64,000 nucleotides of DNA from GCF_058153355.1 NZ_CM177019.1; one strand, 5' to 3'; positions 13,010 to 54,718 are shown, counted from the stretch's first letter. Notes: generated from the sequence alone by a model not told the origin. Numbers and translations: made by a program.

Positions 13010-15346
13010 ATGAAGCAAATTCGTCTGCTGGCGCAGTATTATGTTGACCTGATGATGAAGTTAGGTCTGGTGCGCTTCTCAATGTTGCTGGCGCTGGCCC
13101 TCGTCGTTCTTGCCATTGTGGTACAAATGGCAGTGACCATGGTGCTGCATGGTCAGGTCGAAAGCATTGATGTTATTCGTTCTATCTTCTTTGGTTTGCT
13201 GATTACGCCGTGGGCGGTCTACTTTCTATCGGTGGTCGTTGAGCAATTGGAGGAGTCACGACAACGTCTGTCACGGCTGGTGCAAAAACTGGAGGAGATG
13301 CGCGAGCGCGATTTGAGCCTCAACGTTCAGTTAAAAGATAATATTGCCCAGCTAAATCAGGAAATTGCCGTTCGTGAAAAAGCGGAAGCAGAACTGCAGG
13401 AAACCTTCGGCCAACTGAAAATTGAAATTAAAGAGCGCGAAGAGACACAAATTCAGCTCGAGCAGCAATCCTCATTCTTACGTTCCTTCCTTGATGCTTC
13501 ACCCGACCTGGTTTTTTATCGTAACGAAGATAAAGAGTTTTCCGGCTGTAACCGCGCGATGGAGCTGCTGACCGGAAAAAGCGAAAAACAACTGGTTCAT
13601 TTAAAACCTGCTGATGTTTACTCGCCGGAAGCTGCCGCGAAAGTTATTGAAACCGATGAAAAAGTATTTCGTCATAATGTGTCTCTGACCTATGAACAGT
13701 GGTTGGATTATCCCGACGGACGCAAAGCCTGCTTTGAAATCCGTAAAGTGCCGTACTATGACCGCGTGGGTAAACGTCACGGTTTAATGGGTTTTGGTCG
13801 CGACATTACCGAGCGTAAGCGGTATCAGGATGCGCTTGAACGCGCCAGCCGCGACAAAACGACGTTTATCTCCACCATCAGTCACGAATTGCGTACACCG
13901 CTGAACGGTATCGTCGGCCTGAGCCGCATTTTGCTGGATACTGAACTTACCGCTGAGCAGGAAAAATATCTCAAAACAATCCATGTTTCGGCCGTCACGC
14001 TGGGGAATATCTTCAACGATATTATTGACATGGATAAGATGGAGCGGCGCAAGGTCCAGCTTGATAATCAGCCAGTTGATTTCACCAGCTTCCTTGCCGA
14101 TCTGGAAAATCTCTCCGCATTGCAGGCGCAACAGAAAGGGTTGCGCTTTAATCTGGAACCGACGCTGCCATTACCGCATCAGGTCATTACTGATGGGACG
14201 CGTTTACGGCAGATCCTGTGGAACCTCATCAGTAACGCCGTCAAATTTACCCAGCAGGGCCAGGTTACCGTGCGCGTGCGCTACGATGAAGGCGATATGC
14301 TGCATTTTGAAGTGGAAGACTCTGGTATCGGCATTCCGCAGGATGAGCTGGATAAAATCTTCGCCATGTATTACCAGGTGAAAGACAGTCATGGCGGTAA
14401 ACCTGCCACTGGCACCGGTATTGGTCTGGCCGTTTCTCGTCGTCTGGCGAAAAATATGGGCGGCGATATTACGGTTACCAGCGAACAGGGCAAAGGTTCA
14501 ACCTTTACGTTGACGATCCACGCACCGTCGGTAGCAGAAGAGGTTGATGATGCGTTTGATGAAGACGATATGCCTTTACCGGCGCTGAATGTGCTGCTGG
14601 TGGAAGACATTGAACTGAACGTGATTGTCGCACGCTCTGTGCTGGAAAAATTAGGTAACAGCGTTGATGTCGCCATGACCGGCAAGGCGGCGCTGGAGAT
14701 GTTTAAACCGGGCGAATACGACCTGGTGTTGCTGGATATTCAGTTGCCAGATATGACCGGGCTGGATATCTCTCGTGAACTGACGAAGCGTTATCCGCGC
14801 GAGGATTTACCGCCGCTGGTGGCCTTAACCGCTAACGTGCTGAAAGACAAACAAGAGTACCTCAATGCTGGAATGGATGATGTGCTGAGTAAGCCGCTTT
14901 CTGTTCCGGCGCTAACCGCGATGATCAAGAAATTCTGGGATACCCAGGATGATGAGGAGAGTACGGTGACGACAGAAGAGAACAGTAAATCAGAAGCATT
15001 GCTCGATATTCCCATGCTGGAACAGTATCTCGAACTTGTAGGACCGAAGCTGATCACCGATGGGTTAGCGGTGTTTGAGAAGATGATGCCGGGATATGTC
15101 AGCGTGCTGGAGTCGAATCTGACGGCGCAGGATAAAAAAGGCATTGTTGAGGAAGGACATAAAATTAAAGGTGCGGCGGGGTCAGTGGGGTTACGCCATC
15201 TGCAACAGCTGGGTCAGCAAATTCAGTCTCCTGACCTTCCAGCCTGGGAAGATAACGTCGGTGAATGGATTGAAGAGATGAAAGAAGAGTGGCGTCACGA
15301 CGTAGAAGTACTGAAAGCGTGGGTGGCAAAAGCTACTAAAAAATGA
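13010..15346 (+). CDS. arcB: Aerobic respiration control sensor histidine kinase (hybrid kinase with receiver and HPt domains)
   Basis: 778-aa ORF; N-terminal TM segments, H-box (SHELRTPLN), receiver domain and C-terminal HPt; adjacent to ArcZ. Confidence 0.95.
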   Translation: MKQIRLLAQYYVDLMMKLGLVRFSMLLALALVVLAIVVQMAVTMVLHGQVESIDVIRSIFFGLLITPWAVYFLSVVVEQLEESRQRLSRLVQKLEEMRERDLSLNVQLKDNIAQLNQEIAVREKAEAELQETFGQLKIEIKEREETQIQLEQQSSFLRSFLDASPDLVFYRNEDKEFSGCNRAMELLTGKSEKQLVHLKPADVYSPEAAAKVIETDEKVFRHNVSLTYEQWLDYPDGRKACFEIRKVPYYDRVGKRHGLMGFGRDITERKRYQDALERASRDKTTFISTISHELRTPLNGIVGLSRILLDTELTAEQEKYLKTIHVSAVTLGNIFNDIIDMDKMERRKVQLDNQPVDFTSFLADLENLSALQAQQKGLRFNLEPTLPLPHQVITDGTRLRQILWNLISNAVKFTQQGQVTVRVRYDEGDMLHFEVEDSGIGIPQDELDKIFAMYYQVKDSHGGKPATGTGIGLAVSRRLAKNMGGDITVTSEQGKGSTFTLTIHAPSVAEEVDDAFDEDDMPLPALNVLLVEDIELNVIVARSVLEKLGNSVDVAMTGKAALEMFKPGEYDLVLLDIQLPDMTGLDISRELTKRYPREDLPPLVALTANVLKDKQEYLNAGMDDVLSKPLSVPALTAMIKKFWDTQDDEESTVTTEENSKSEALLDIPMLEQYLELVGPKLITDGLAVFEKMMPGYVSVLESNLTAQDKKGIVEEGHKIKGAAGSVGLRHLQQLGQQIQSPDLPAWEDNVGEWIEEMKEEWRHDVEVLKAWVAKATKK

Positions 15347-15458
15347 CCCCGGCTAGACCGGGGTGCGCGAATACTGCGCCAACACCAGGGAAATCTTGGC
15401 TGCGCCGTAAATTATTATGATGAGTTACAAGGGCACAGCACTGTTTTTCAGGCCGCAC
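15338..15458 (-). ncRNA. arcZ: ArcZ small RNA (Hfq-dependent), antisense to the arcB 3' end
   Basis: The reverse complement of ~15338-15458 matches the ArcZ sequence as I recall it (GTGCGGCCTGAAAAACAGTGCTGTGCCCTTGTAACTCATCATAATAATTTACGGCGCAGCCAAGATTTCCCTGGTGTTGGCGCAGTATTCGCGCACCCCGGTCTAGCCGGGGTCATTTTTT), with terminator hairpin CCCCGG/CCGGGG and T-run overlapping the arcB stop. Confidence 0.75.
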
Positions 15459-15575
15459 GCAGTTAAGATAGCAAAACTTAAATGATTTGTTACATGAATC
15501 AGTTAAATGTGTGATGCGTAGCATTTTTATTAAAAAAATTAATGTGTTTCAGTCAATTGCGAAAGGATGATCACA

Positions 15576-16229
15576 ATGAAGAAAATTGGCGTAATTCTGA
15601 GCGGATGCGGCGTCTATGACGGTTCTGAAATTCATGAAGCGGTGTTGACGTTGTTAGCTATTTCACGCAGCGGTGCGCAGGCGGTCTGCTTTGCACCGGA
15701 TAAGCAGCAGGTTGATGTTATCAACCATTTAACTGGCGAAGCGATGACGGAAACGCGCAATGTGCTGATTGAAGCGGCACGAATAACGCGCGGTGAAATC
15801 CGTCCTCTGGCTCAGGCCGATGCCGCTGAACTGGATGCGTTGATTGTGCCGGGGGGGTTTGGCGCGGCGAAGAATTTAAGCAATTTTGCCAGTCTTGGTA
15901 GCGAATGCACCGTTGACCGTGAATTAAAGGCGCTGGCACAAGCGATGCATCAGGCCGGAAAACCGCTTGGTTTTATGTGTATTGCCCCGGCGATGCTGCC
16001 GAAAATTTTCGATTTCCCGCTGCGTTTGACCATCGGTACTGATATCGATACCGCAGAAGTGCTGGAAGAGATGGGCGCGGAGCATGTGCCGTGTCCTGTC
16101 GATGATATCGTGGTTGATGAAGACAATAAGATTGTCACCACCCCGGCATATATGCTTGCGCAGAACATTGCAGAAGCGGCGAGCGGCATTGATAAGCTGG
16201 TTTCCCGCGTGCTGGTTCTGACTGAATGA
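15576..16229 (+). CDS. elbB: DJ-1/PfpI-family glyoxalase-like protein ElbB
   Basis: ORF 15567..16229; conserved start [16 protein letters not shown] at ATG 15576; 217 aa. Confidence 0.85.
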
Positions 16230-16954
16230 GTAAAAGCCGCTTAACGGTGTTTAGTTTCGTTCGCCGTTTTCTTCTACGGTTAATGGTTGTCCTCGCCATT
16301 TTCTGGGGCGGGGGCATCGCGTTGTTTAGCGTTGCGCCTGTTCCTTTCTCAGCGGTAATGGCCGAGCGACAAGTCAGCGCCTGGCTGCATGGCAATTTTC
16401 GTTACGTGGCACATTCTGACTGGGTCAGTATGGATCAAATCTCGCCGTGGATGGGACTGGCGGTGATTGCCGCAGAAGATCAGAAGTTTCCTGAGCACTG
16501 GGGCTTTGATGTCGCTTCCATTGAGCAAGCCCTGGCGCACAACGAGCGCAATGAAAACCGTATTCGCGGCGCATCAACGATTTCTCAGCAAACAGCCAAA
16601 AATCTCTTTTTATGGGATGGACGTAGCTGGGTACGAAAAGGGTTGGAAGCCGGATTAACGCTGGGGATAGAAACAGTCTGGAGCAAAAAGCGTATCCTGA
16701 CGGTTTACCTGAATATCGCCGAATTTGGCGACGGTGTGTTTGGCGTCGAAGCTGCGGCACAACGTTATTTCCACAAACCCGCGAGCAAACTTACCCGGTC
16801 GGAAGCTGCGTTACTGGCTGCCGTATTACCTAATCCACTGCGTTTCAAAGTCTCCGCGCCATCGGGCTATGTGCGTAGCCGTCAGGCGTGGATTTTACGG
16901 CAGATGTATCAGTTAGGCGGTGAGTCGTTTATGCAACAACACCAGCTGAATTAA
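16226..16954 (+). CDS. mtgA: Monofunctional peptidoglycan glycosyltransferase
   Basis: 242-aa ORF with N-terminal TM anchor and transglycosylase motifs (…[12 protein letters not shown]…); ATGA overlap with elbB. Confidence 0.9.
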
Positions 16955-36927: not shown

Positions 36928-37009
36928 AATCTCGCGCTAACAACCTGGAATCGAGCCGTCATACTACGGCGCAACGCCCTATAAAGTAAACGATGACCCT
37001 TCGGGAACT

Positions 37010-37080
37010 TCAGGGTAAAATGACTATCAAAATGTGAATTGTAGCTGACCTGGGACTTGTACCCGGGTCGGTATTTTTTT
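37010..37080 (+). ncRNA. graL: greA leader region with intrinsic attenuator (GraL-type leader RNA)
   Basis: Hairpin GACCTGGG…CCCGGGTC followed by TATTTTTTT about 100 nt upstream of the greA start; a leader-derived sRNA is described for greA. Exact ends not determinable from sequence. Confidence 0.4.
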
Positions 37081-43730: not shown

Positions 43731-43817
43731 TGCCGAGGTGGTGGAATTGGTAGACACGCTACCTTGAGGTGGTAGTGCCCAATAGGGCTTACGGGTTCAA
43801 GTCCCGTCCTCGGTACC
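43731..43817 (+). tRNA. leuU: tRNA-Leu (anticodon GAG)
   Basis: GCCGAGGTGGTGGAATTGGTAGACACGCTACCTTGAGGTGGTAGTGCCCAATAGGGCTTACGGGTTCAAGTCCCGTCCTCGGTACCA; cloverleaf with long variable arm, anticodon loop UUGAGGU, encoded CCA end. Confidence 0.9.
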
Positions 43818-47598: not shown

Positions 47599-47675
<77 letters not shown>

Positions 47676-47797
47676 CTTTCCCTTAGAGTCCTTTTTCAAA
47701 TATACTGTGAAGACTTCGGCCTTCGTAGTGGGATTTGAAAAAATCCTTCTGGAAAGTGCTCCAGACCGCAGTTGCGGTTATAGGGTTCAGTTATATA

Positions 47798-47822
47798 AAG
47801 CCCCGATTTATCGGGGTTTTTT
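47798..47822 (+). terminator. Intrinsic terminator/attenuator between metY and rimP
   Basis: AAAGCCCCGA-TTTA-TCGGGG followed by TTTTTT. Confidence 0.65.
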
Positions 47823-47881
47823 GTTATCTGACTACAGAATAACTGGGCTTTAGGCCCTTTTTTTATGTCTTGGGGGTGGGC

Positions 47882-52562: not shown

Positions 52563-52636
52563 TGCGGGATAAGGCGTTTACGCTGCATCCGGCATGGATT
52601 GCCTGATGCGACGCTGGCGCGTCTTATCAGGCCTAC
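52563..52636. repeat. Pair of inverted REP elements (BIME-like) between infB and rbfA
   Basis: TGCGGGATAAGGCGTTTACGCTGCATCCGGCA and GCCTGATGCGACGCTGGCGCGTCTTATCAGGCCTAC read directly. Confidence 0.75.
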
Positions 52637-54107: not shown

Positions 54108-54473
<366 letters not shown>

Positions 54474-54490
54474 TTCTTGCGAGTTTCAGA

Positions 54491-54516
54491 AAAGGGGCCT
54501 GAGTGGCCCCTTTTTT
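54491..54516 (+). terminator. rpsO rho-independent terminator
   Basis: AAAAGGGGCC-TGAGT-GGCCCC followed by TTTTTT. Confidence 0.85.
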
Positions 54517-54519
54517 CAA

Positions 54520-54718
54520 ACTGACGGCAGCAATTCACTGGAAACTAATGTATTGTTGCTATGAATGATCTTCCGTTGCAGAGGTTCGCGCGGCTAATGA
54601 GAGGCTTTACCCACATTGGGCTGGGTTAGGGTTGTCATTAGTCGCGAGGATGCGCAGAAGATCGGGTATTAACACCAGTGCCGTAAGGTGCTGTCTAAGA
54701 AAGAGAAAGGATATTACA
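54520..54718 (+). promoter_or_regulatory. pnp promoter/leader with long stem-loop (autoregulatory RNase III-processed leader in E. coli)
   Basis: ~200-nt untranslated region ending at a UUG start; extended pairing potential across 54590-54680; function assigned from what is known of pnp regulation. Confidence 0.55.

Follow-up and report, generated by a model that had tools for sequence, protein, structure and literature searches.

The arcZ small RNA gene overlaps the 3' end of arcB in Escherichia coli and may hold the last codons of arcB to a fixed sequence

Introduction

The ArcZ small RNA (sRNA) of Escherichia coli is encoded convergently to arcB, whose product is a hybrid sensor histidine kinase belonging to the ArcB/ArcA system. 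Both arcZ and its overlap with arcB are already known, having been described since 2001, annotated in strain K-12, represented by an Rfam family and reviewed in 2024, the review giving the usual overlap as about ten bases (PMC11331407). Here we describe this gene pair in a 64,000-nucleotide (nt) stretch of DNA (NZ_CM177019.1, assembly GCF_058153355.1) that is identified by its sequence as E. coli chromosome. The whole of this stretch is referred to as the window, and positions are counted from its first letter. What the present analysis adds is a quantified survey of the overlap amongst related genomes, together with the observation that the last two codons of ArcB are fixed as AAA wherever the overlap exists.

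ArcZ binds Hfq, and RNase E trims its transcript to a 3' fragment of some 56 nt, which carries at its 5' end the seed for nearly all known ArcZ interactions, involving many mRNAs in trans (PMC11331407). Activation of rpoS proceeds through pairing of ArcZ with the rpoS leader at -91..-63, which opens an inhibitory hairpin and prevents Rho termination (PMC11331407). Repression of arcZ by ArcB/ArcA-P when oxygen is low and a decrease in arcB mRNA brought about by ArcZ together form a feedback loop (PMC11331407; PMC4281340; PMC3937726), and it has been proposed that the arcB mRNA destabilises ArcZ in the manner of an antisense RNA (PMC11331407; secondary sources citing Mandin & Gottesman 2010). 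The first-pass annotation of the window, which had been made from the sequence alone, stated that ArcZ regulates rpoS and is reciprocally regulated with arcB, and is in agreement with this literature (PMC11331407; PMC4281340; PMC3937726).

A closely comparable described system is that of GadY and gadX, in which the sRNA likewise binds Hfq and is antisense to the 3' untranslated region of the adjacent mRNA, and base pairing at this site alters the fate of that mRNA (PMC3937726; PMC4281340). The outcomes differ, however, in that GadY stabilises its target and directs its processing, whereas ArcZ is reported to destabilise arcB. Additionally, ArcZ, unlike GadY, has a large trans regulon that is served by a separate seed.

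Results and Discussion

The arcZ gene and its junction with arcB

A covariance model scan of the entire window at the Rfam gathering threshold located ArcZ (RF00081) at 15351..15458 on the minus strand, with a score of 120.8 bits (E = 4.1e-27) that is nearly twice the gathering score of 66 and a match extending over model positions 1-106 of 106. Alignment of positions 15338..15458 with the curated K-12 gene arcZ (b4450; SraH/RyhA; NC_000913.3 3350577..3350697) demonstrated identity at 121/121 positions, an agreement well in excess of what chance would produce. The annotated K-12 arcB (3350689..3353025) overlaps that gene by 9 nt, and the same 9-nt overlap is found here, along with the same terminator, the same convergent arcB and elbB on the other side. 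Only three positions differ within 261 aligned nt when the K-12 flanks are included, none of which is inside the RNA, and one of which is a synonymous GCT/GCC difference in the fourth-from-last arcB codon. We have little doubt that the locus is the arcZ (formerly sraH/ryhA) sRNA gene of E. coli, convergent to arcB, with its terminator set against the arcB stop codon and with probable read-through from arcB. The first-pass placement of ArcZ at 15338-15458, antisense to the last codons of arcB, was therefore correct by both alignment and covariance model, and because the sequence is identical to that of K-12 ArcZ, the published biology of this sRNA is considered to apply here. The features of the gene pair are as follows.

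13010..15346, plus strand: arcB coding sequence, 778 amino acids plus stop (open reading frame list, NCBIfam, RefSeq annotation of near-identical genomes)
15338..15458, minus strand: arcZ gene, full 121-nt primary transcript (K-12 b4450 identity, RF00081)
15338..15393, minus strand: position of the processed active 3' form of ArcZ, about 56 nt (length from PMC11331407, coordinates computed from the 121-nt transcript)
about 15369..15393, minus strand: conserved ArcZ seed at the processed form's 5' end (literature and conservation)
15346..15364, minus strand: ArcZ Rho-independent terminator stem-loop, ACCCCGG-UCUAG-CCGGGGU (terminator scan, minimum free energy fold)
15338..15343, minus strand: 3' oligo-U tract of ArcZ, the U-tract of the terminator (sequence)
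15338..15346, both strands: shared segment, AAA AAA TGA in arcB (Lys777, Lys778, stop) and UCAUUUUUU at the ArcZ 3' end (direct reading)

At its 3' end, the open reading frame of arcB reads GCT ACT AAA AAA TGA. On the opposite strand, the terminator scan revealed a stem-loop at 15364..15346 followed by CATTTTTT, and the minimum free energy fold of the 121-nt RNA closes with this same hairpin at its 3' end, the terminus of ArcZ being ...CACCCCGGUCUAGCCGGGGUCAUUUUUU. The six uridines at 15343..15338 complement the ArcB codons Lys777-Lys778 (AAA AAA), as had been proposed when the T-run of ArcZ was equated with the terminal A-run of arcB. The TGA stop codon (15344..15346) sits between the A-run and the stem and is represented in ArcZ by its complement, UCA, with A15346, the last base of the stop codon, templating the closing U of the ArcZ stem. 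The 3' U-tail of Hfq-dependent sRNAs binds Hfq, and the U-tail of ArcZ would be expected to do the same.

Term-seq mapping published for K-12 detected a strong 3' end at 3350696 (+) under all three growth conditions, with the class of internal for arcZ and that of antisense for arcB (Adams et al. 2021, supplementary file 1). This position corresponds to 15339 in the window, giving an overlap of ArcZ with the arcB coding sequence of 8 nt as mapped versus 9 nt as annotated, so that by either measure the two genes overlap at their 3' ends, as first suggested. Because the mapped 3' end of ArcZ is inside the coding sequence, every full-length arcB mRNA must have 8 nt or more in common with the opposite strand of ArcZ.

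Conservation of the overlap in the Enterobacterales

Species-representative genomes were scanned with the exact 23-nt ArcZ core TGGTGTTGGCGCAGTATTCGCGC, which retrieved at least 120 loci, 118 of them scorable when the window is counted; the figures given in this section are among the matches listed. The sampled families were the Enterobacteriaceae, Erwiniaceae, Yersiniaceae and Morganellaceae, with Pectobacterium, Dickeya, Serratia, Hafnia and Edwardsiella falling outside the sample. The core itself (15365..15387) is invariant by ascertainment, though the conserved flanks around it are not subject to this bias.

In all 118 scorable loci arcB was adjacent and convergent to ArcZ, and a T-run of 5-8 nt was present at the end of ArcZ in each (118/118). 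The arcB stop codon abutted the ArcZ stem in an identical register in 101 of the 118 loci, the overlap being 9-11 nt when measured from the stop codon to the last base of the T-run. Across the 118 genomes, the 5' half of ArcZ had a per-column identity of 30-80%, compared with at least 90% in the 3' half, which runs from UUUCCC to the terminator. Amongst 26 genus-level representatives, the terminator consensus contained seven pairs, none of which was broken, and six of the 26 sequences carried compensatory GC-to-AU changes at two of these pairs (CCCCGG/CCGGGG vs CCCCAA/TTGGGG). The minus-strand terminator hairpin that the original identification of ArcZ had relied upon is thus not only found by scan and fold but also covaries across genera.

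A total of 102 of the 118 ArcB proteins ended in Lys-Lys, and each of the 204 codons concerned was AAA (204/204), whereas lysine codons elsewhere in the same arcB 3' parts were AAA in 912 of 1372 cases (66.5%). The third-from-last arcB codon of the surveyed genomes usually ended in A as well, extending the A-run. In several Pantoea, in Mixta, Chimaeribacter and Morganella psychrotolerans, and in a Pluralibacter-like group, the two genes were separated or barely touching, with a gap of 5-105 nt in several of these lineages, and ArcZ was retained. The ArcB proteins of such uncoupled genomes ended in REK, QDK, EKS, KKQ, NKP, ASR, DRR or EQA, the Lys-Lys tail being mostly lost and AAG codons being present, and ArcZ and its terminator were intact. 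About 85% of the Enterobacterales sampled share this overlap geometry, which, on the basis of these codon counts, constrains the last codons of arcB to AAA.

Two variant layouts were also observed. In five uncoupled genomes (L024, Pantoea sp. Mb-10; L015; L027; L048; L100) UCA or UUA, the complement of a stop codon, was still found directly after the ArcZ stem, and in Pantoea sp. Mb-10 the end of arcB lay 19 nt beyond this point and had a separate AAG AAA AAA TAA. The layout in this genome looks as if an ancestral overlap had been parted by a short duplication or insertion. In another three genomes, those of Enterobacter sichuanensis (L112), a metagenome-assembled genome (L034) and Pantoea sp. 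1.19 (L022), a one-base change in the A-run carried the arcB frame past the usual stop codon into the hairpin, ending for instance in ...KKMTPA*, with an overlap of 21-23 nt. These extended frames could be either a true variant or a homopolymer assembly error.

We consider that the Lys-Lys tail and stop codon of ArcB may be locked to the terminator and Hfq-binding U-tail of ArcZ, and that read-through from arcB may in addition give rise to a duplex of about 110-120 bp, and we would assign this reading a probability of roughly 0.55. It is favoured because AAA accounts for 204/204 of the terminal lysine codons against 66% elsewhere, and because the tail decays and AAG appears once the genes have separated. 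An alternative to the main reading of the locus that we regard as rather improbable, though it is the strongest of those considered, is that the overlap has no regulatory role and represents mere compact packing, with any effect of ArcZ on arcB being indirect, for instance via RpoS or ArcA. The several lineages in which the genes are parted by 5-105 nt and ArcZ is nonetheless kept are consistent with packing, as are other short 3'-3' overlaps in the window, such as the 4-nt overlap of mtgA and yrbL. According to secondary sources, however, ArcZ directly destabilises arcB mRNA and vice versa (PMC11331407; PMC3937726; PMC4281340), and the geometry is exact to the nucleotide over four families, though a constraint from the terminator alone could explain the latter.

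Transcription across the junction

Immediately after the shared hairpin, the arcB strand reads GCGCGAAUAC, without a U-tract, and a terminator search found no intrinsic terminator on the plus strand between arcB and elbB. Two further candidates for arcB termination were considered. An intrinsic terminator acting in both directions, for which each strand would need an upstream A-tract as well as a downstream U-tract, was rejected, as the T-run is on the minus strand only and the plus-strand hairpin is followed by GCGCGAATAC. A non-canonical arcB terminator, consisting of the antisense of the ArcZ 5' hairpin and a subsequent UUUUU (about 15400..15447, plus strand), is supported by no Term-seq 3' end.

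Since there is neither a plus-strand U-tract nor another terminator before elbB, arcB transcripts probably cross the whole arcZ region. On the strength of this terminator absence, the arcB mRNA would probably read through all of arcZ, and the mutual destabilisation of the two RNAs could then proceed via complementarity of ArcZ with the arcB 3' untranslated region (3'UTR) as well as with the last codons, amounting to up to about 120 nt and extending well beyond the 9-nt overlap. The 9-nt overlap itself may be best seen as tight packing of the terminator against the stop codon, which would impose AAA AAA on arcB, and the antisense regulation most likely involves the much longer arcB 3'UTR. In an Erwinia study, a 5' arcB translational fusion was unresponsive to ArcZ, a result that would be expected if control of arcB acts at the 3' end.

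A further explanation for the reciprocal expression of the two genes, which we regard as improbable, is interference between convergent transcripts, either by collision of polymerases or through a shared hairpin acting in both directions. The genes are convergent, a palindromic hairpin is located exactly at their junction, and some transcription on the ArcZ strand does enter arcB, as indicated by a region of Rho-dependent termination inside arcB at K-12 3351461 (+), which has a Rho score of 15.2 and at which bicyclomycin raised downstream reads from 20 to 418 (Adams et al. 2021). The corresponding position in the window is about 14574 on the minus strand. This entry is ambiguous as to its source, which may be either an antisense promoter of its own or transcription past the ArcZ terminator, and its high upstream count is no proof of read-through, since the ArcZ 3' end falls within the 800-nt interval counted upstream. 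The asymmetry of the hairpin, in which only the ArcZ side has a U-tract, argues against interference, as does the reported ability of plasmid-borne ArcZ to lower arcB mRNA in trans.

It is very improbable that the shared 8-9 nt are the regulatory element itself, with the ArcZ tail pairing with the last arcB codons and triggering decay or blocking translation termination: although the overlap is kept in 101/118 genomes among the matches listed and ArcZ binding has been described as including 6 nt of coding sequence (PMC4281340), the same source puts binding in the 3'UTR as well, a duplex of 8-9 bp that is almost all A-U would be very weak, the U-tail of Hfq-dependent sRNAs is established to be occupied by Hfq, and ArcZ and its terminator are intact in lineages without the overlap, so that ArcZ function is independent of it.

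Several observations weigh against parts of the main reading of the locus, namely read-through from arcB and the regulatory circuit into which ArcZ is placed. Firstly, no minus-strand (K-12) 3' end of arcB is present near or antisense to arcZ in the Term-seq tables of Adams et al. 2021. Secondly, chromatin immunoprecipitation of ArcA gave no site in the region upstream of arcZ, which corresponds to 15459..15560 in the window (Park et al. 2013), and this sits uneasily with the accepted direct repression of arcZ by ArcA-P. Thirdly, RNAduplex yielded -40.4 kcal/mol for the 56-nt ArcZ against the K-12 rpoS leader, a value that 302/500 shuffled sequences equalled or bettered. The 30-nt ArcZ seed alone gave -23.0 kcal/mol against the same leader, with 320/500 shuffles as good, and duplex energy was consequently dropped as evidence for ArcZ-rpoS pairing, being no better than in shuffled controls. 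A contiguous 9-bp helix of ArcZ 78-86 with rpoS -87..-79 is situated inside the published -91..-63 region, though equally long helices also occur elsewhere.

Promoter, coding sequence and annotation of the locus

A likely -10 element and a weak -35 element for arcZ were recognised relative to the annotated 5' end at 15458.

15465..15470, minus strand: likely arcZ -10 element TATCTT (-12..-7, with C at -13; inferred from sequence)
15488..15493, minus strand: weak arcZ -35 element GTAACA (inferred from sequence)

A sigma-70 promoter scan of 15000..15800 returned nothing, the TATCTT/GTAACA pair scoring 8/12 against a scan threshold of 9/12. Inactivation of arcZ has been achieved by mutation of the -10 element (Bak et al., PMC3937726). 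An ATG open reading frame of 62 amino acids (15336..15524, minus strand), which spans both ArcZ and its promoter, had no NCBIfam match and is almost certainly spurious.

The 778-amino acid open reading frame on the plus strand matched NF008302, the NCBIfam equivalog for ArcB, with 1483 bits against a cut-off of 838 and over residues 1-778. It is followed on the plus strand by elbB and then mtgA. With a 1-kb query around arcZ and arcB, the locus was found in 5416/5426 complete E. coli genomes, with a top identity of 99.9%. In the RefSeq/PGAP annotation of the closest genome (NZ_CP169399.1, at the equivalent of 14400..16400), arcB, elbB and mtgA are present and an arcZ feature is absent; among the annotations compared, arcZ was carried by the curated K-12 record only.

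Other antisense arrangements and RNAs in the window

The first-pass annotation had described arcZ and arcB as the sole clear case of paired sense and antisense genes in the window, a description that did not withstand further inspection, as two other such arrangements were identified. The larger of these involves the SraG sRNA (160.8 bits in Rfam), which lies opposite the rpsO-pnp intergenic region, itself transcribed on the plus strand.

54489..54660, minus strand: SraG sRNA (Rfam, 160.8 bits)
54489..54517, both strands: SraG terminator hairpin with T-runs on both sides, doubling as the rpsO terminator (sequence)

SraG has been described as being transcribed opposite to the rpsO-pnp operon (Fontaine et al. 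2016), and SraG/rpsO-pnp is a larger antisense arrangement than that of arcZ/arcB in the same window. As is the case for ArcZ, SraG is a curated E. coli sRNA opposite a housekeeping operon, with a terminator hairpin held in common with a convergent gene. Unlike ArcZ, all of SraG is antisense to an intergenic region or 5' leader, and it makes no contact with a coding sequence. The hairpins differ in a similar manner, that of SraG being truly bidirectional with T-runs on both sides, whereas that of arcZ/arcB has a T-run on one side only.

The second arrangement is that of mtgA (plus strand, ending at 16954) and yrbL (minus strand, ending at 16951), which have 4 nt of coding sequence in common (16951..16954) where their stop codons lie. 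In published Term-seq data, the 3' end listed at K-12 3349181 corresponds to 16854 on the minus strand of the window, demonstrating that yrbL transcripts run about 100 nt antisense into mtgA. The remaining RNA features of the window, all of which were detected at the Rfam gathering threshold, were the following.

36958..37079: greA leader
43732..43815 and 47599..47672: two tRNAs, leuU and metY by K-12 position
47764..47864: rimP leader
52563..52633: naRNA4, a nucleoid-associated RNA derived from a repetitive extragenic palindromic (REP) element
54146..54260: S15 leader

Implications

Automatic annotation that does not include arcZ carries a practical risk, in that gene deletions or codon edits made where arcB ends can harm a global regulator that is missing from the annotation. 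Such damage was avoided by Bak et al., who mutated the arcZ promoter instead (PMC3937726). Codon locking of the ArcB end is not mentioned in the ArcZ review or in the other accessible ArcZ literature that was reviewed. If the last codons of ArcB are indeed locked to the ArcZ terminator, the shared sequence would serve two uses, with an sRNA terminator setting the residues as well as the codons at the C-terminus of a protein. Synonymous substitutions in these codons would then change the output of both ArcZ and RpoS, and the locus would offer a clean, small example of dual constraint on a coding sequence.

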